From an uncultured archaeon (lineage in GTDB: Archaea; Asgardarchaeota; Lokiarchaeia; Sigyniarchaeales; SOKP01): a stretch of 64,000 bases of DNA. The DNA is taken from assembly GCA_964486045.1 (NCBI GenBank), contig CAZALK010000017.1:1-64000 (forward strand), given 5' to 3'. Shown here piece by piece: positions 40,758-49,938 of this stretch. Within the stretch, counting starts at the first letter, position 1, and every line of letters begins with the position of its first letter. A program made the translations under genes and the position numbers. The notes under the pieces were generated by a model. It had not been told where the DNA came from and did not search any database. It was given only the letters and a program-made list of their open reading frames with translations.

Positions 40758-41591
40758 ATGAAGAACATTGAAGGGGAATCTGAAGTCGTCAAAAAATCCA
40801 ATAAACCAAACACAATTGATACTTTAAAACGTGATTTTAAAGCTCTTGGAATAAAACCAGGAGCTGTTATAATTATGCACAGCTCTCTAAGTAAGTTAGG
40901 TTGGACGGTTGGTGGCCCAGTTTCTGTAATTCGCGCTATAATGGAGGTTTTAACAAAGAAAGGAACTTTAATTATGCCTGCGTTTACTTCGGGAAACAGT
41001 GAACCATCAGCGTGGGAAAATCCTCCTGTACCCAAGGATTGGTGGCCAATAATCCGCGAAAATACGCCTGCTTTTAATCCAATTATATCTCCTACGAGAA
41101 AGATGGGTATAATTGTAGAGACTTTTCGTACCTTTCCAAAAATTTATCGTAGTAACCATCCTTTATCTTCATTTGCAGCATGGGGGAAAGAAGCTAAAAA
41201 TATAACAAAAAATCATACACTTGAGTCAGATTTAGGTGAAAGTTCTCCCCTCGCAAGAATCTATGACTTAGATGGTCAAATCTTATTACTAGGTGTTATT
41301 CACTCAAATAATTCTTCACTACACCTCGCAGAATACCGAAGTAATTACTACGGTAAAAAATACCAACCTACAGGCTCAGCAATAATGAAAAATGGGAAGA
41401 GAAAATGGGTAGTATGGAAGGAATTAGATCTTAATCCTGATGATTTTGAAGAAATTGGTCAGGATTTCGAGACATTAAATCAATACAAACCTAAGAAAGT
41501 AGGATTAGCTGATGCACGTTTATTATCCCAACGAGAATTGATTGACTTTGCTATAAATTGGATTAAGAAAAATAGAGTTGAAGAAAAATGA
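40758..41591 (+). CDS. AAC(3)-family N-acetyltransferase (YokD-like)
   Basis: MHSSLSKLGW, GTLIMPAFT, RSNHPLSSFAAWG, LHLAEY. Confidence 0.9.
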   Translation: MKNIEGESEVVKKSNKPNTIDTLKRDFKALGIKPGAVIIMHSSLSKLGWTVGGPVSVIRAIMEVLTKKGTLIMPAFTSGNSEPSAWENPPVPKDWWPIIRENTPAFNPIISPTRKMGIIVETFRTFPKIYRSNHPLSSFAAWGKEAKNITKNHTLESDLGESSPLARIYDLDGQILLLGVIHSNNSSLHLAEYRSNYYGKKYQPTGSAIMKNGKRKWVVWKELDLNPDDFEEIGQDFETLNQYKPKKVGLADARLLSQRELIDFAINWIKKNRVEEK

Positions 41592-41720
41592 AATAAAGTA
41601 TAGGAGTTTCCGAATAGATACTTTACTCTATGATTGAGCCTAGCAAATCCTTTACCTTTGAAAGAATTAAGAAAAAGTAAGAAAACTAGAATAAGATATA
41701 AATAAGAATATTCTTTTGTT

Positions 41721-41727
41721 TTTATAA
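41721..41727 (+). promoter_or_regulatory. Putative TATA box for the trp leader transcript
   Basis: TTTATAA centred about 26 nt before the leader ATG, suggesting a leaderless mRNA. Confidence 0.45.
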
Positions 41728-41749
41728 CTAAAAATATATGATTTTAAAT

Positions 41750-41800
41750 ATGGCAACTGTAAAATCTTCTGCTTGGCGTTGGCAGTGGCCTTGGCGTTAG
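41750..41800 (+). CDS. trpL: Trp-rich leader peptide MATVKSSAWRWQWPWR (trpL-like)
   Basis: 16 codons, 4 of them TGG; ends ~160 nt upstream of trpD. Confidence 0.8.
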   Translation: MATVKSSAWRWQWPWR

Positions 41801-41851
41801 ATAACGTCCTTTCATTGGTTTAGATCATATCGATATCTCTCGTTTTTATTA

Positions 41852-41891
41852 TTTTTGTTAAAACTTAACAAAAAGTTATTTTGCTTTCTTT
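41852..41891 (+). terminator. Hairpin plus U-rich tract in the trp leader (candidate attenuator/terminator)
   Basis: TTTTTGTTAA-AAC-TTAACAAAAA (41852-41874) followed by GTTATTTTGCTTTCTTT. Confidence 0.5.
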
Positions 41892-41961
41892 ACTGTGCGT
41901 TTTTATTATTGACACCCAATTATGAAACGAAACACAAAAAAAGAGTAAAACATGGAGTAGT

Positions 41962-43032
41962 TTGTTTAAAATGTCAGAAGCACATGAAAAAATAATTGAT
42001 GCAATAAAAAAAATATCTCAAAATGAAAGTCTATCAACTACGGAAGCAGAAGATGTTATGAGTGAGATAATGTCTGGAAAGGCAAAAGATTCTCAATTAG
42101 GTGCCTTATTAACTGCTTTAGTAATGAAGGGTGAAACAATTGAAGAAATTACGGGTTTTGCAAGAATAATGCGAGAATTCGCAAATGTTATTAAACCAAG
42201 TGTCGACAGTGAATTATTAGACACTTGTGGGACTGGGGGAGATAAAATAAAAACCTTTAACATAAGTACCATTTCAGCTTTAGTAGTAGCAGGAGCTGGT
42301 GTTTCTGTAGCAAAACATGGGAACCGAGCCGTGACTAGTAAATGTGGAAGTGCTGACTTATTAGAAGGATTAGGTGTAAAGATAGATTTACCACCTGAGG
42401 ATGTTAAGAATTGTATTGAGAAAATAGGATTAGGATTTATGTTTGCTCCTCTTTTTCATCCTGCAATGAAGTATGTAATGCCAACTAGAAGAGCTCTAAA
42501 GATAAGAACTGTATTCAATATACTAGGACCTTTAACTAATCCTGCTAATGCTAAATATCATGTGTTAGGTGTATTTCGTAAGGATTTGGCACCCGTTATG
42601 GCAAAAGTATTACAAGATCTAGGAGCAAAGCATGTTTATACGATACATAACTCTTGCGGTATTGATGAATTAGCGCCAGTGGGAATAAATTATATAACTG
42701 AATCGTATAATGGAAATATGGAAACCTATGCAATTACTAATAAAGATTTTAAAATCCCAGATTGCTCCGTAAATGATTTACTAGCAGGAAATCTTGATGA
42801 TAATATTAGAATTGCTTTAAAAATATTAAAAAAACCAGATTTTAAAGCTAAGTATAATACAATTCTGATGAATGTAGCTTTAGCGTTAAAATGTGGGGGC
42901 ATTGCGACTGACTTTGAAGAAGGTATATCAATCGCTAAAAACACGATAGAGTCAGGTAAAGCTTTCGAAAAGCTTGAAAGTTTCATTGAAATTACTGGTG
43001 GGAATAATAATAAATTGAAGAGTTATTTATAG
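41962..43032 (+). CDS. trpD: Anthranilate phosphoribosyltransferase
   Basis: DTCGTGGD, NISTISA, KHGNRAVTSKCGSAD; start may be the ATG at 41971. Confidence 0.96.
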   Translation: MFKMSEAHEKIIDAIKKISQNESLSTTEAEDVMSEIMSGKAKDSQLGALLTALVMKGETIEEITGFARIMREFANVIKPSVDSELLDTCGTGGDKIKTFNISTISALVVAGAGVSVAKHGNRAVTSKCGSADLLEGLGVKIDLPPEDVKNCIEKIGLGFMFAPLFHPAMKYVMPTRRALKIRTVFNILGPLTNPANAKYHVLGVFRKDLAPVMAKVLQDLGAKHVYTIHNSCGIDELAPVGINYITESYNGNMETYAITNKDFKIPDCSVNDLLAGNLDDNIRIALKILKKPDFKAKYNTILMNVALALKCGGIATDFEEGISIAKNTIESGKAFEKLESFIEITGGNNNKLKSYL

Positions 43033-43047
43033 GCTTGGAAATAAAAA

Positions 43048-43845
43048 ATGATCTCCAATAAAATTATCGAGATAGTTGAAAAACGGAAAAATTCCATTGA
43101 AAAAGACTTGATTTTTATGGAATCTATAAAAGGTAAAAGTCTTAGGGATAATCGAAAATCTTTAAGCGAAACCATCAAAAATAATTCCGAAACATCAATA
43201 ATATCAGAAATTAAGCTATCTTCACCTACTTTGGGAGATATTCGAAAATCTTTTAATATAAAATCAATAGCGATGGAAATGGAGAGTTCGGGGGTGATTG
43301 GATTGAGCGTTTTAACCGAACCTAATTATTTTAATGGATCATATGAAAATCTAAGGTTAGCTGTATTGAATACAAAATTACCTTGTTTAATGAAAGATTT
43401 TGTTGTTACTCCTATTCAATTCAAGATCGCTGCACAGATTGGAGCAACTAATATTCTTTTAATTAACTCAATTTGTAATATTAAGGAGATGTATAAGTTA
43501 GCTATTGATCATGATCTAGAACCTGTAATAGAAATTCATGCAGTGGAAGAAATAATCGATATTAGAGAATTATTTGATATGGGCTACGAACCTAAACTGA
43601 TTGGAGTTAATAATCGAAACCTGAAGACCTTGAATATTAATTTGAGGATCTCAAAAGAGATTATACCAAAATTAAAGGAAGAATTTGGAGAAAAAACCCA
43701 AATCATCTGTGAAAGTGGGATAAATTCTATTGAAGATATTAATTTTATAAAACCTACAGGTGCTAATGCTTTTCTAATAGGGTCATCAATCATGCAATCT
43801 AACAATATTAAGAAAAAAATTTTAGAATTACGTGGGGTAAATTGA
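43048..43845 (+). CDS. trpC: Indole-3-glycerol phosphate synthase
   Basis: ISEIKLSSPT, LSVLTEP, MKDF, GVNNRNL, ESGI. Confidence 0.94.
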   Translation: MISNKIIEIVEKRKNSIEKDLIFMESIKGKSLRDNRKSLSETIKNNSETSIISEIKLSSPTLGDIRKSFNIKSIAMEMESSGVIGLSVLTEPNYFNGSYENLRLAVLNTKLPCLMKDFVVTPIQFKIAAQIGATNILLINSICNIKEMYKLAIDHDLEPVIEIHAVEEIIDIRELFDMGYEPKLIGVNNRNLKTLNINLRISKEIIPKLKEEFGEKTQIICESGINSIEDINFIKPTGANAFLIGSSIMQSNNIKKKILELRGVN

Positions 43846-44498
43846 TTGAATACGTAAAAATCTGTGGGTTAAAGAAGTACGAACATGTGCTACTTTGCAT
43901 AGAAAATGGTGCAGATGCGGTAGGATTTATATATGATGTTCCTGAATCTCCGAGAAACTTACAAAATATGGAGTTAAAGGCTCTTTTAAAAAAAATAAAA
44001 AATAAAATTTCAACTGTAATTGTGCTTAAACCATCGAGTATTCATGAATTAGAAGAAATAATTGATGATTTCGATGCATCCTATTTTCAAATTCATATTA
44101 ATTTTGATGAAAATGAGTTAGAAAAACTCTCATTAGAGCATAAAAGGAAAGTGATCCTCGCACTAAAAGTTAATCAAGCAAATAAAGATTCAACAATGAA
44201 GCTGATAAATAATCTAAATAATAAGGTTTTCGCATTTCTTATTGACAATAGTGAGGGTCAAGGTAATGAATTAGATTTTGAAATTGTTAAGAAAATTATA
44301 AGACAAAACTCTGATAAAAGGATAATAGTTGCTGGGGGAATCAGCATTGAAAATGTTGGAGAAGTAATAGATGTGTTAAAACCCTACGGAATTGATATAA
44401 GTAGCTCTTTAGAATTTGAGGTAGGTGTTAAGGATCCTAATAGGATTAAATTTATTTTAACTAAAATTAATAATTTAAAAAAAAATTTGAGTGATTAG
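43842..44498 (+). CDS. trpF: Phosphoribosylanthranilate isomerase
   Basis: [26 protein letters not shown]. Confidence 0.94.
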
Positions 44499-44503
44499 AA
44501 ATA

Positions 44504-45706
44504 ATGGACTACATTGGAAACTATCCAAATGAATTAGGAAAGTTTGGGGAATTTGGTGGTATGTTTGCCCCTGAAATTTTAATGCCTGCACTTACTGAAC
44601 TCACTGAAGCCTTCAATAGATATGGAAGAGATAAAGATTTTCAAGAGGAATTTGAGACAATTCTAAGAGACTATAGTGGAAGACCAACACCTTTATATTA
44701 CGCCTTAAGATTAAGTGAAGATATGGGTTGTAAGGTTTATTTAAAACGGGAGGATTTAAATCATGGTGGTGCACACAAGATTAATAATGTTATGGGGCAA
44801 GCACTCCTAGCAAAGAAAATGGGAAAATCGAAACTCATAGCAGAAACAGGAGCAGGGCAACATGGATTTGCAACGGCAATAGCAGGTGCATATTTTGGAA
44901 TGGAGACCAAAGTATTTATGGGTGAAATAGATATTAAAAGGCAAGCCTACAATGTTTATAGAATGCAACTGCTTGGAGCTGAAGTGGTTCCTGTCAAGTC
45001 TGGTTCAAGAACGTTAAAGGATGCCGTAAATGAGGGTCTTAGGTATTGGATCGCCAATGTGGAAGATACACATTATTTATTGGGGAGTGTAGTAGGTCCT
45101 CATCCTTACCCCTTGATGGTACGAGAATTTCAGAGAGTCATTGGTAAAGAAACTAGAATACAAATTATAGAACATGAGGGGAAATTACCTTCAGCCATTA
45201 TTGCTTGCATTGGTGGGGGAAGTAATGCCATTGGTATAATGTTTGATTTCATTAATGACAATAATGTTCAATTAATAGGTGTTGAAGCTGCAGGAGAAGG
45301 AAAACACACTGAGAAACATTCAATGGCTTTGGGTTTGGGACGTAAGGGTGTACTTCATGGATCATTGATGTATCTACTACAGAATGAATACGGAAACATC
45401 TTAGAAACACACTCAATAAGCGCGGGGTTAGATTATCCTGGAGTCGGTCCAGAACACTGCTATCTGAAAGATGTAAATAGATTAAGAGTTGGAGAAGCTA
45501 CAGATAAAGAGACTCTTGAAGCTTTTAGAAAATTAAGCTTGAAAGAAGGTATTATTCCTGCTCTCGAAAGCTCTCATGCTCTTGCATATTTAGATAAAAT
45601 AAAAGATGAATTTAAGGAAGACGATATCATTGTGGTTAATTTATCGGGAAGCGGTTCGAAAGATTTGGATATAATTAAAAAACATATGGAGTTCAAAACG
45701 CAATGA
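44504..45706 (+). CDS. trpB: Tryptophan synthase beta chain (TrpB1 type)
   Basis: [35 protein letters not shown]. Confidence 0.97.
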
Positions 45707-46533
45707 ATGGTCCAAATAGGCTTCAAAAATTATTTAATGGCAATAAACATAAAGACGAAAAGTTTTTCATGCCATTTTTAGTTGCAGGGGATCCAGATAT
45801 TCATCAATTCAAGAAACTTGCTGAAAAAATAGAACCATTTGCAGATATTCTTGAAATTGGAATTCCTTTTAGTGACCCAATTGCTGATGGTCCAACTATC
45901 CAGGAAGCAAATATTAGAGCATTTAGCTCAGGGATTAATACGCATATAGCTATTGAAGCTATAGCCGATCTAAGAGGGATTACAGAAAAACCTATAGTCA
46001 TTTTAACATATTACAATATCTTAATACAAGGAGCCGATTCTTTAGAGAAATCATTGGATAACACAATCAAAAAGTTAAAAGAAAGCGGTGTTGACGGGAT
46101 TGTTATTGGAGATCTCCCGATTGAGGAAGCTGACCTGACTTTAGAAGCTTGTGAGAAATATGACGTTTTCCTTATCTTTTTAGTAGCTCCATCTACAACT
46201 GAAGATAGGTTAAAAAAAATATTAAAGGTAGCAAAAGGCTTTATATATTTAATATCAGTAATGGGAGTAACTGGGGAGAGAGATGCAGTTTCCCAAATTA
46301 CAAAAGATTTAATCAATAATGTGAAGCAAAAAACTGACAAATTACTCCCAATTTTCGTCGGATTCGGTATTTCTAAACCCGAGCATGCTAAAATAATTGT
46401 GGATGCTGGAGCAGATGGTATCATTATTGGTTCTGCGATTGTAAACATAATTAAGAAAAACATAAACAATTCAAAAAAATTAGAGCAAGAGATAGTGGAA
46501 TTTGCTTCAAGTATTAAAAAAGCTATTAATTAA
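45703..46533 (+). CDS. trpA: Tryptophan synthase alpha chain
   Basis: [27 protein letters not shown]. Confidence 0.97.
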
Positions 46534-46562
46534 GACTAAATTATTGAATAGAGAGGAGAAAA

Positions 46563-48059
46563 ATGGATTTTGATATACATATAGAAAAGATTGGAGAATT
46601 AGATAACATTTTTACATTTTATAAGTATTTAGTTAAAAGATATGACCTGAAAAAACATGCTTTATTAGAATCTACATCAGCAAATACCAGAGAAACTCTC
46701 TACAGCTTTATAGCTATGGAACCTGATTTTATGTTGGAGGTTAACGGTGAGAATTTTAAGATTTATGATATAACTACAGAGAGAGGAGAAGTTATTAAAG
46801 AGTATGTTGAATCTAAAGATCCTTCACAAGAACGACCATATAATCCATTACCATTTAAGGACAATGTTAAATATAACATGGTAGCCCTTGACACTCTGAG
46901 TTCTCTTACACCATATTCTACTTTACCCTTTACAGAGCTATTTCCAAGAAATATTTTTTATGGTGGAATGCTTGGTTATATTGGATATGATGTAGTTGCT
47001 CCATATGTTGGGTATAAATCCTCTAGTGAATTTCCCGACATTCTTATGGCGCTCTTTACCAAAGTATTGGTATATTCACATAGCTCGAATGCATTATTTA
47101 TGATTGATAACAGCATTGATGATTATTCAAAAGACAAAGATATCAGATATCAGTTAAGCCTCTTTAAAAAACATGGCACTCCAGATGATTGTAAAGAAAT
47201 TTCAATGGATATTGACGAAATTGATGAATCTGGTTTTAGATCAAATACGTCTAAATCGGCCCATGGTAGAATGATTGAAAAAACTAAAGAACATATTTAT
47301 AATGGGGATATAATACAAGCTGTCATTTCTCGAAGATTGTATACTGAGAGTAAGGTTGACCCAATGGTAATTTATGAAGTACTCAGAGTCCTTAATCCGT
47401 CGCAGTATATGTATAACATCAATTTTAATGATGTGAAGATAATTGGAAGTAGCCCAGAAGCGTTAATTTCTAAGAATAAGGATGTTTTGAGCACGGTACC
47501 GATTGCAGGAACTATTCGGAGAGGCAAAACACAAAAAGAAGACTTGGAACTGGAAAGAGAGTTGCTTGATGATCCTAAGGAGCAAGCGGAACACATTATG
47601 CTGGTTGATTTAGCCCGAAATGATCTCGCAAAAGTTTCATACCCCGGAACTGTTGATACCTATGAGTTAATGACCATTCAGAAATATCAGAAAGTTCAAC
47701 ATATAGTAAGTAAAGTCCAGAGCAAGACTCCTCTAGATGGGTATCAAGTTTTAAAGAGTATTTTTCCTGCGGGAACGCTCTCTGGCGCGCCCAAACTGAG
47801 AGCAATGCAAATAATTCAAGAATTAGAGACAGAATCGAGGGGACCATATGGGGGAGGTGTAGGATATTTTAGTTTCAATGGTGATATGGCGTTTGCAATA
47901 GCGATCAGAACGATGTTTGGGAGAAATGGAACATATTTTGCTCAAGCTGGTGGGGGTATTGTATCAGATAGTCAACCAGATGATGAATTCCGGGAGACTC
48001 ACAACAAATTGTATAGTGTATTAAAATCAATCAAAATAGCGGAGGCAAGAGAGAATTGA
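46563..48059 (+). CDS. trpE: Anthranilate synthase component I
   Basis: LLES, GSSPE, EHIMLVDLARND, PAGTLSGAPK. Confidence 0.95.
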   Translation: MDFDIHIEKIGELDNIFTFYKYLVKRYDLKKHALLESTSANTRETLYSFIAMEPDFMLEVNGENFKIYDITTERGEVIKEYVESKDPSQERPYNPLPFKDNVKYNMVALDTLSSLTPYSTLPFTELFPRNIFYGGMLGYIGYDVVAPYVGYKSSSEFPDILMALFTKVLVYSHSSNALFMIDNSIDDYSKDKDIRYQLSLFKKHGTPDDCKEISMDIDEIDESGFRSNTSKSAHGRMIEKTKEHIYNGDIIQAVISRRLYTESKVDPMVIYEVLRVLNPSQYMYNINFNDVKIIGSSPEALISKNKDVLSTVPIAGTIRRGKTQKEDLELERELLDDPKEQAEHIMLVDLARNDLAKVSYPGTVDTYELMTIQKYQKVQHIVSKVQSKTPLDGYQVLKSIFPAGTLSGAPKLRAMQIIQELETESRGPYGGGVGYFSFNGDMAFAIAIRTMFGRNGTYFAQAGGGIVSDSQPDDEFRETHNKLYSVLKSIKIAEAREN

Positions 48060-48685
48060 ATATATTATTTATTAACAATTATGATAGTTTTGTTTATAAT
48101 TTGGTGAATTATATATGCCAATTAGAATCAGACTCTAATATTATCGTTGAGGACCATAATATAACTATTGATAAAGTAAGAAGTTTAAACCCCAATAAAA
48201 TTATTATTTCACCCGGACCAGGCCATCCTAAATATGAAACCGGTAATGTAATTCCGATAATTAAGGAGTTCTGCGATAAAATACCAATTCTAGGGATATG
48301 TTTAGGACATCAGACAATAATTGAATCATTTGGAGAAGATCAAGATTTAGAATATGTAGGACTAGCGAAAGTAGGTCCAATGCACGGAAAACAATCAAAT
48401 ATATTCCATGACCAAAAAACGATCTTCAAAGATATTCCAAATCCACTACAAGTTATTAGATATCATTCACTGGCTGCCAAAGAGAGTACACTCCCTCAAG
48501 ATCTTAAGATTACGGCTACTGCGGATGACGGAACAATCATAGCAGTTAGACACAAACAATACCCCGTTGAAGGAGTTCAATTTCATCCCGAATCGATAAA
48601 AATGAAGCCCCATGGAATGCAAATATTGAAAAATTTCTTAGAAATTTCCTCGAATAAAGACATTAGAAATCAGAATTTATCATAA
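48056..48685 (+). CDS. trpG: Anthranilate synthase component II
   Basis: NNYDSF, SPGPG, GICLGHQ, RYHSL, QFHPES. Confidence 0.95.
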   Translation: MNILFINNYDSFVYNLVNYICQLESDSNIIVEDHNITIDKVRSLNPNKIIISPGPGHPKYETGNVIPIIKEFCDKIPILGICLGHQTIIESFGEDQDLEYVGLAKVGPMHGKQSNIFHDQKTIFKDIPNPLQVIRYHSLAAKESTLPQDLKITATADDGTIIAVRHKQYPVEGVQFHPESIKMKPHGMQILKNFLEISSNKDIRNQNLS

Positions 48686-48726: not shown

Positions 48727-49938
48727 ATGGCTGAATTAAGGTACTTCTTTGCTTATGAACTGGAAGATACAGGGGAACGGAAAGAAATTTTTTTCTCTGA
48801 GAAGGATTTAGCACAGTATCTTTATCCAGAGCAAGTCTTAGTGCTAGTTCGAGAAGATTTAAGGAGAATCTTCATCTGGAAAGGCGCCAAATCACCGATA
48901 AACAAGAGATTTATAAGTTCTAGAATAGCTCGAGATTTGCAACAAGATTTAATGAAGGATGCTCGTTATCATCGATGTAAAATTGTATCTGTTGACCAAG
49001 GAGATGAAATTCAAGAATTTCTTGATATTTTTAACCTAAAATCAATGGAAGTTAAAGAAAGATTAGCGGACATGAGATATGTACTTAATAGGGATAAAGA
49101 GGTGATTGAAAAAAAGGTAGTATACCCAGAAAAGAAAGAATATAGGATTAATAAACATCTAACGCTAAAATTAATAGAGGGACAAACTGAAATTTATATT
49201 GATGAGAAACCCTTTCATCAATGCAAATATCTCCTACTTAATCTCACTCAAAAAGATTTTGCTAAGTTTGATCACATTGACTCAATTGATGAAGCGTTTG
49301 AGATATATAACAAGATGGATAAAAATCATGAAGGAGATCATGATCTAATTGATCCTGAATCTGAATTTATTGGTCATTGCTCTAATCTCCAAGCATGGTA
49401 TGAACATGACTATAATCTAAGAATTCTGCACAGCAGCTTGTCCATCCCCTTACTCAAAAAAATGGCGTTCTTAGGAGATAAAAAGGCCATTATTAAATTA
49501 AAAGAAAGCATTGCAACTAGGATTGCATCAAGACATTATAATACCATTATTTTTTACTTGAATGAAAAATACCTTAGATTATTTTCAAACGAGGAATTGG
49601 AAGTAATGTTTGAAGATTGGCTTGACAAAAACGTTGAATTCGCTTTCATGGAGAAAAGAAGGTTATGGTATCCTCTTCTTAAAGAATTGATTGATAGGGG
49701 AATTACCAGGGCACAGAAAATCATTAAAAAAGAAATCGTTTTATATCTAATAGAAGACAATTTTGAGGCCTATCGATATTTATTGAATAGTGATTTTATC
49801 AAGCTCATTAACTTAGAAGATCTTGAGGAAGTCTATGAACTAATTCCAAAAAAAGATATGGTTGCATTAAGACGAATTGAAAATCTAATTCTCAAAGCCA
49901 CACTTAAAGAGAGAAGAAATTTAAAAGAAGAAAATTGA
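48727..49938 (+). CDS. Gelsolin-like domain fused to a Lokiarchaeia-type (LRR-associated) domain
   Basis: QVLVLV..DLRRIFIWKG..S and VDQGDE..EFL; then HLTLKL...CKYLLLN...EFIGHCSNLQAW. Confidence 0.65.
   Translation: MAELRYFFAYELEDTGERKEIFFSEKDLAQYLYPEQVLVLVREDLRRIFIWKGAKSPINKRFISSRIARDLQQDLMKDARYHRCKIVSVDQGDEIQEFLDIFNLKSMEVKERLADMRYVLNRDKEVIEKKVVYPEKKEYRINKHLTLKLIEGQTEIYIDEKPFHQCKYLLLNLTQKDFAKFDHIDSIDEAFEIYNKMDKNHEGDHDLIDPESEFIGHCSNLQAWYEHDYNLRILHSSLSIPLLKKMAFLGDKKAIIKLKESIATRIASRHYNTIIFYLNEKYLRLFSNEELEVMFEDWLDKNVEFAFMEKRRLWYPLLKELIDRGITRAQKIIKKEIVLYLIEDNFEAYRYLLNSDFIKLINLEDLEEVYELIPKKDMVALRRIENLILKATLKERRNLKEEN

Follow-up and report, generated by a model that had tools for sequence, protein, structure and literature searches.

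Can an archaeon adjust the expression of its tryptophan (Trp) biosynthesis genes through the translation of a leader peptide? The question is raised by a short open reading frame (sORF) with four Trp codons, which lies 170 nt upstream of the trpDCFBAEG operon of an uncultured Asgard archaeon (GTDB order Sigyniarchaeales, SOKP01; assembly GCA_964486045.1) whose genome comprises 5.18 Mb with 31% G+C. The locus lies in the first 64,000 nt of contig CAZALK010000017.1, the stretch analyzed here and referred to below as the window. In bacteria, attenuation by leader peptides is a textbook mechanism that requires transcription and translation to be coupled, and the control of Trp synthesis known so far in archaea relies on DNA-binding regulators. 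An initial annotation of the window had proposed that the sORF is translated and senses the Trp supply on behalf of the operon. We find this proposal well supported by comparative evidence: the recurrence of such leaders at Trp loci in Asgard lineages, frame-preserving indels, a fixed start and spacing, a covarying hairpin (P1) and RNA contigs from the relative Lokiarchaeum ossiferum. On these grounds we consider it very likely that the element is a cis-acting sensor that reads Trp codons, and likely that it serves as a ribosome-mediated leader-peptide attenuator of trpDCFBAEG.

The sORF (Table 1) occupies part of a 379-nt spacer that separates an aminoglycoside-acetyltransferase-like gene (40758-41591) from trpD (start at 41971). 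Its four TGG codons (at 41774, 41780, 41786, and 41792) are spaced exactly 6 nt apart. The coordinates, codons, and peptide given in the initial annotation all proved correct, as did the other features that it had listed: a TATA-like box upstream, a hairpin (41793-98 with 41803-08) over the last Trp, Arg, and stop codons, a duplication of CTTGGCGTT (at 41772-80 and again at 41790-98), several U-tracts (T5 at 41843-47, 41852-56, and 41900-04), and a perfect 10-bp hairpin further downstream. No Shine-Dalgarno-like motif was found before the sORF ATG, either in the window leader or in the alignment of its relatives (alignment A1), where a TTTnATAA block is kept ca. 23 to 30 nt before the ATG. Across this genome, such Shine-Dalgarno-like motifs occur at positions -15 to -10 in ca. 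30% of genes, and a small TATA peak lies at -32. It is plausible, from a TATA box placed at this fixed distance, that the sORF is leaderless or nearly so.

Table 1. Features of the trp leader region (positions are those of the window)
Feature	Coordinates	Strand	Description and evidence
TATA-like box	41720-41727	+	TTTTATAA; -30 to -23 relative to the sORF ATG
Leader sORF (trpL-like)	41750-41800	+	MATVKSSAWRWQWPWR, then stop; 16 codons; ATG at 41750, TAG at 41798-41800
P0 helix	41752-41790	+	GGCAACUG (41752-59) pairs with CAGUGGCC (41783-90) in the Trp cluster; minimum free energy folds, weaker support
Extended P1 hairpin	41783-41818	+	5' strand comprises Trp codons 3 and 4 and their neighbors; alignments, covarying arms
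Linker and pyrimidine/U-rich tract	41819-41851	+	Conserved linker (UUUAGAUCAUAU...), tract includes T5 at 41843-47; alignment A1; candidate premature-termination site
P2 hairpin	41852-41874	+	Perfect 10-bp AU hairpin with 3-nt loop (41852-61/41865-74), followed by a U-rich stretch (41875-41893)
P3	41894-41936	+	Imperfect hairpin of ca. 17 bp or DNA palindrome, CCAAU-containing loop; conserved in alignments
trpD-trpC-trpF-trpB-trpA-trpE-trpG operon	41971-48685	+	Proposed target of regulation; genes identified with Pfam/NCBIfam

A chance origin of the Trp-rich leader is excluded by sORF counts across the genome. Four Trp within the last 10 residues were found in 3 of 55,566 ATG-initiated sORFs of 8 to 40 amino acids, collected from all six frames of the whole genome. 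When the count was restricted to the 5,630 sORFs located in intergenic regions upstream of genes, only two had four Trp within a window of 8 residues, and these precede trpD and trpB2. The two Trp-richest leaders of the genome are therefore placed before its only two Trp synthesis loci, the trp operon and trpB2. The seven enzymes encoded by the operon are themselves poor in Trp (a single Trp in 2,219 residues, compared to ca. 23 expected from the genome-wide content of 1.04%), which fits an operon that must be translated during Trp shortage. Runs of Val, Leu, Ile, Thr, Ala, Arg, or His in other intergenic sORFs of this genome were attributed to chance, with unrelated genes downstream.

The initial annotation had suggested looking for Trp-rich sORFs upstream of trp operons in other Asgard genomes, and we found them in many lineages. 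In a first genome search, all 8 trpD loci with upstream DNA, from four families, were preceded by such an sORF. The same was true of all 19 assessable loci in metagenome relatives (TrpD identity of 67 to 75%), one of which has an sORF with just two Trp (MSTIKNSVCRWPWRA). Among 23 further genomes of the family, 22 have such a leader, 18 of them with at least three Trp and four with two; three of the leaders are degenerate versions in which UGG has been replaced by Cys or Met codons (...TWFCICCWHA and ...GWQMPWRY). The 23rd genome is cut by its contig end. Trp-rich sORFs, mostly of the form W-x-W-x-W, are also present in eight or nine other Asgard families (with leaders upstream of trpD in families f2, f3, f4, f7, f28, f29, and f33, L. 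ossiferum included), where the peptides read ...FWFWWAWRL, ...TWWPWQ, ...AWSWRR, ...TWPWHWPLPA, ...WRSWWWI, ...LPWWHWF, ...EWPWCWRN, and FWSWSWHY. None of the more distant, GC-richer metagenome relatives has a Trp-rich sORF within 400 nt of trpD; the nearest candidate there (L084) is a reading frame of 46 amino acids that ends in KWWWCIK and terminates 280 nt upstream. Likewise, no Trp-rich sORF was found at the eight non-Asgard archaeal trpD loci with free upstream DNA, although non-Asgard loci are poor controls, since trpG mostly precedes trpD there.

The element also recurs at a second locus. The other Trp-rich leader of this genome (G000), MTLARNLLWCWQWPWRGDTALSLE, is located on contig C1 (L032:494-568), 133 nt before a gene (L032:701-2104) that NCBIfam names TrpB-like (trpB2; 642 bits). 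Four blocks (Trp cluster, P1, linker, and P3) are common to it and the window leader, of which it is a paralogous copy. Such paralogous leaders also exist in L. ossiferum (G171, CP104013), where they precede trpD (...DNKAWPWHKL) and trpB2 (...DNKAWPWH). In a survey of 40 trpB2 upstream regions sampled from genomes of the family, 32 contained a Trp-rich sORF with the core W(C/R)WQWPWRW, ending 130 to 190 nt before the gene. Within this genus, the leader was present before trpB2 in 20 of 20 sampled genomes, most of which are without a trp operon. The full operon is in fact patchy in its distribution: a trpD orthologue was found in 24 and trpB2 in 113 of the 134 other family genomes, and most relatives seem able to make Trp only from indole and serine. 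At two trpB2 loci (L279 in genome G202 and L280 in genome G196), both from genomes that carry the full trp operon, the Trp sORF has been lost and P3 retained (together, in L279, with the 3' strand of P1 and the linker); these are decayed leaders.

Several features indicate that the leader is maintained as a reading frame. The ATG is invariant in both of our alignments (A1 and A2), and in most leaders the first Trp codon follows it at a distance of exactly 8 codons. Gap runs are multiples of 3 in 6 of 7 cases within the sORF columns, compared to 12 of 60 in the downstream leader, and the two paralogous sORFs of L. ossiferum, which have diverged in the middle and differ in length by 6 nt, have kept their frame intact. 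This bears upon the possibility that the frame is incidental and that the UGG triplets and hairpins constitute a binding site for a TRAP-like protein or, as in a T-box, for tRNA-Trp. The exact 6-nt spacing of the triplets and the strong nucleotide conservation of UGGCAGUGGCCUUGG would be in keeping with such a site. However, these triplets lie in a constrained reading frame with an invariant ATG and frame-preserving indels, and leaders in other Asgard families have adjacent WW or WWW with no periodicity, which suggests that the conserved entity is the Trp codons rather than a 6-nt periodic RNA motif. Moreover, leaders of the same design appear to exist with Cys codons (see below), and an Rfam cmscan of positions 41000 to 42500 at E values of up to 10 returned neither Trp_leader nor T-box, only chance-level matches. 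We therefore regard a protein or tRNA binding site as highly improbable.

Least credible of the explanations that we considered is a nascent-peptide arrest of the TnaC kind, in which the leader would sense free tryptophan and not the supply of Trp-tRNA. It is true that the trpB2 leaders show good conservation of the Q, P, and R of W-Q-W-P-W-R; however, the conservation of Q and P is explained by the position of their codons in paired RNA (P0/P1). An arrest of this type calls for conserved residues whose distance to the stop codon is fixed. In the leaders, the C-terminal tails vary in sequence and in length, and there are wide differences both in the residues and in the spacing from the Trp cluster to the stop (WR, WRA, WRWQ, WHA, or WRGDTALSLE precedes the stop codon). 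Furthermore, an arrest at high Trp would be suited to inducing a catabolic operon, whereas trpDCFBAEG is biosynthetic.

Does the RNA downstream of the start codon offer something for a ribosome to act upon? Here the structural support comes from covariation and not from energy, because the minimum free energy of the whole 231-nt leader is no better than that of shuffled sequences (z = -0.17). In alignment A2, 78 to 79% of cells are paired, compared to 29 to 45% when the 3' partners are slid, and the covariation score was equalled by no shuffle; in A1, the figures are 84% and 34 to 51%, with 13 pairs (ten in P3) in which both partners have changed. For P1 alone, 82 to 88% are paired, versus 30 to 50% when slid. 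This hairpin consists of an inner helix, GGCGUU (41793-98) with AACGUC (41803-08), closed by an AGAT loop in which the stop codon lies, and an outer helix, CAGUG (41783-87) with CAUUG (41813-17). In relatives, the last Trp codons are without exception part of its 5' strand, and the loop usually contains the stop codon; from one subgroup to the next, the arms change in sequence and yet remain complementary (GGCGUU/AACGYC, GGCGCG/CGCGC, GUUGGC/GCCAAC, AGUGGC/GCCACU, and GCACG/CGUGC). The 3' strand of the outer helix is the linker motif CA(U/A)UGG, whose partner is CAGUG or CCUUG, with compensation between CAG-to-CAU and CAUUG-to-CAAUG changes. On the 3' side of P1, the alignments show a conserved UUAAAUCAUAUUUUAU-like stretch and then the pyrimidine/U tract, and at the position of P2 a hairpin is found in relatives as well, with a subgroup-specific sequence. 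P0, which would use the mRNA 5' end and first codons as one of its strands, is paired in 72% of cells in A2 and shows little covariation. Two further ideas were discarded. A pairing between the linker CAUUGG and the CCAAU of P3 was rejected because the linker varies (AUUGG/AAUGG) and CCAAU is fixed. P1 was also rejected as a canonical hairpin-plus-U terminator, as its 10-nt tail averages 4.3 U, barely above composition; it was the only feature flagged by the terminator rule of a sigma-70 promoter scan, itself irrelevant for an archaeon.

That the leader and the genes belong to one transcript is suggested by L. ossiferum, whose locus is present in contigs assembled from four metatranscriptome runs of one 2025 study (these give no levels, starts, or ends); a search for RNA runs with sequence of the archaeon of the window returned none. 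In two to three of the runs, contigs begin at L201:346, 18 nt short of the Trp codons, and continue unbroken across the ca. 320-nt leader into trpD and beyond, and a paralogous contig extends downstream from the trpB2 leader. None of the runs covers the 180 nt upstream of the contig start, which speaks against carry-over of DNA. The shared start itself is an assembly artifact of de Bruijn (k-mer) branching, since it equals the position of the first mismatch between the paralogs (376) minus 30. These contigs support cotranscription of the leader with the trp genes in this relative, and nothing more.

A conserved structure of the downstream leader, P3, calls for separate consideration. It has an invariant UUG...CCAAU core, 82 to 87% of its cells are paired, and 10 of its 17 pairs show changes on both sides (A1). 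In this genome, the full motif is confined to the two Trp leaders, apart from one chance match. In many trpB2 leaders, the basal strand of P3 can instead form a competing helix, P4, which also covaries (at one pair, CG in 8 leaders and UA in 8). The distance from P3/P4 to the following start codon is always 30 to 45 nt, also at loci with an inserted extra ORF. Since P3 persists at the two trpB2 loci without an sORF, it has some function of its own.

One possible function is that of a promoter or operator. P3 could act as DNA and not as RNA, and the genes may have their own promoter, so that the sORF and the trp genes would be separate units and trpD would be controlled through P3 by a Trp-responsive factor. 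In that case, the short Trp-rich transcript or peptide would act in trans or in some other role, like rnTrpL/peTrpL in Sinorhizobium. The palindrome-like form of P3 with its TATA-like core, its restriction to the two Trp loci, and its survival where the sORF is gone are all compatible with this arrangement. Trp-dependent control in archaea is known from TrpY of Methanothermobacter, a DNA-binding protein that represses trp genes at TRP boxes and involves no leader peptide; if it is a DNA palindrome, P3 could be an operator of a broadly similar kind. Against this, the arms of P3 are asymmetric (with conserved bulges, an invariant asymmetric loop, and G-U pairs), and the covariation of the competitor P4 argues that the region functions as RNA; on these two grounds, we take P3 to be about twice as likely to be RNA as DNA. 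In addition, the L. ossiferum contigs join the Trp codons to both trpD and trpB2, and a role in trans would leave the strict colocation of sORF and genes unexplained. We thus consider separate units unlikely.

Two neighboring genes were noted in passing. In one subgroup of leaders (loci L002, L045, L050, L056, L059, L061, L124, L125, L129 to L133, and L138), an extra ORF of ca. 90 amino acids lies between the leader and trpD, downstream of P3/P4. It has a conserved motif, LIN...LGPEK.K(T/A)A(R/K)FIA(E/D)NY, and no Pfam family match, and it could be a candidate small regulator. In the window, the gene directly 3' of trpG (48727-49938) encodes a gelsolin-repeat protein (a weak Pfam match, E = 3.5e-4), which we take to be an Asgard-type eukaryotic signature protein.

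How might a cis-acting Trp sensor built in this way work? Transcription would start ca. 26 nt past the TATA-like box, on the sORF AUG or immediately beside it, and a ribosome would translate the 16 codons of the sORF. When Trp-tRNA is plentiful, the ribosome would clear the four UGG codons and terminate, allowing P1 to fold, and most transcripts would end or stay silent within the 170-nt U-rich leader. When Trp-tRNA is scarce, the ribosome would stall on UGG and occupy the 5' strand of P1, thereby blocking the hairpin, and RNA polymerase would read through into trpD. What comparative and sequence data establish is the sORF with its association to Trp genes and its constraint as a coding sequence, the pairing in P1 and P3, and cotranscription in a relative; the response to Trp and the output step are inferred. 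If the element is a cis sensor, we put the chance that its output is premature transcription termination at a little short of even; control of translation or of mRNA stability is possible as well, if doubtful. In favor of termination, T5 tracts are enriched 2- to 3-fold in the first 40 nt after stop codons throughout the genome (A5 tracts are not), and conserved U-rich stretches follow both P1 and P2. Terminators in this organism look like U-tracts that operate independently of hairpins.

A number of observations weigh against an attenuator of this sort, in addition to the possible promoter or operator role of P3. The first concerns alternative folds. A conserved antiterminator (of the 2:3 type) linking P1 to P2 or to the U-tracts was not found. 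We searched for one with single-sequence folds in which the leader was free, had a ribosome on the Trp codons, or had a ribosome at the stop codon, and with constrained RNAalifold; no conserved alternative partner of the P1 3' strand emerged, and P2 folded regardless of the modeled ribosome position. The duplicated CUUGGCGUU, once suggested as such a partner, has no conserved role that we could find and simply reflects the repetition of Trp-Arg codons. Second, U-tracts are no denser in the leader than in the intergenic background, and no hairpins were found at ordinary gene ends in this genome. Third, P1 would likewise be covered by a ribosome that has reached the stop codon, and the model thus needs fast release together with a polymerase paused in the U-rich stretch. 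Finally, some lineages are down to two Trp codons through changes of W to C or M, and in Asgard families with the trpE-G-D order (trpE-trpG first), we found no convincing Trp sORF before the first gene.

In an alternative account, the same sensor would act at a different step, with the stalled ribosome or unfolded P1 altering initiation of trpD translation or the stability of the mRNA. This might be accomplished via the alternative P3/P4 helices near the start codon, or a ribosome stalled at the 5' end could shield the leaderless mRNA from 5'-3' decay. The ability of the P3 basal strand to form the covarying P4 and the constant distance between P3/P4 and the next start codon fit such a scheme, and if U-tract terminators need no hairpin, a termination switch driven by a hairpin is not an obvious design. 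The nearest experimentally studied design analogue points in the same direction: the leaderless poly-Cys sORFs of mycobacteria (the "ribulon") act on translation, the downstream ribosome-binding site being sequestered in a duplex that stalled ribosomes keep from forming (Canestrari et al., doi 10.1101/834739). They have in common with the probably leaderless Asgard sORFs that consecutive or clustered codons specify the amino acid made by the pathway and that the design recurs at several loci; in the Asgard leaders, too, a stalled ribosome would block an mRNA duplex. In the window, however, both strands of P1 are within 70 nt of the sORF start and at least 150 nt from the trpD start, and across the leaders P1 is 130 to 190 nt away from the regulated start codon. 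Nor did the constrained folds reveal any conserved pairing of a P1 strand with the ribosome-binding region or with P3/P4. We hold an output at translation or mRNA stability to be a tentative and rather unlikely account of the element.

The resemblance of the proposed attenuator to E. coli trpL (Rfam RF00513, Trp_leader) is considerable. Both have a short ORF with clustered Trp codons directly before genes of Trp biosynthesis. In both, these codons form part of the 5' strand of the first hairpin, the stop codon separates its two strands (as in the 1:2 helix), hairpins and U-rich tracts come next, and the operon encodes Trp-poor enzymes. Of the RF00513-type helices, a 1:2-like P1 and a module of P2 plus U-rich stretch are present, but the conserved 2:3 antiterminator pairing was not found. 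The two also differ in that the Asgard leader is archaeal, with a different RNA polymerase and different termination rules; it has no sequence or structure match to RF00513; its Trp codons alternate (W-x-W-x-W-x-W) and are not in tandem; its sORF is probably leaderless; and its leader continues for 130 to 190 nt after the stop codon and includes the extra conserved P3/P4 module. The alternating pattern and the lack of an antiterminator suggest that the mechanism is not a simple copy of trpL. On sequence grounds, then, the element appears to act like a bacterial trpL attenuator while not being a member of the Trp_leader family. A two-strand design, in which the position of the ribosome on the 5' strand decides the fate of a single hairpin, is shared with the pyrBI leader of E. 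coli and with leaders of the ermC/cat type, where a terminator or inhibitory hairpin is kept from forming by the ribosome itself. Those leaders are bacterial, however, and sense UTP-dependent coupling or antibiotics rather than amino acid supply.

The intergenic scan of this genome also returned, as its top match, a poly-Cys sORF, MRINYEHKVRTSTSTCCCMCCCC (seven Cys in eight residues), on the minus strand of contig C25 (L031, ca. 1818 to 1889), 85 nt before a cysteine-synthase-like gene. In another genome of the family, G175 (L299:559-627), MRFRQQNQPNSYFCNCCRDCCC precedes the orthologous gene. In both genomes, the last Cys codons pair with a complement located just after the stop codon. From its sequence, it appears to be a Cys-sensing counterpart of the Trp leader with the same design, and the shared combination of a codon run and a post-stop complement suggests a general principle in these archaea. 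We would give even chances to a broader interpretation, namely, that Asgard archaea (Promethearchaeota) possess a set of probably leaderless amino-acid-sensing leaders (for Trp at trpD and trpB2 and for Cys at the cysteine-synthase-like gene) whose mechanism is not of the four-strand kind. In this scheme, a single codon-run hairpin held open by a stalled ribosome would govern hairpin-independent U-tract termination (possibly assisted by FttA/aCPSF1) or the fate of the mRNA.

To our knowledge, leader-peptide attenuation has not been described in the Archaea, and a full-text literature search turned up no report of it. The case made here comes from the archaeal lineage closest to eukaryotes, is conserved, extends over multiple loci, and is backed by covariation; if the interpretation is true, this would be the first ribosome-mediated attenuation system in that domain. 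L. ossiferum carries the element and is in culture, which makes the question directly testable. Confirmation would mean that ribosome-based sensing of metabolites works with an archaeal RNA polymerase and under archaeal termination rules. It would also provide a conceptual link between bacterial attenuators and the control of eukaryotic genes by upstream ORFs.

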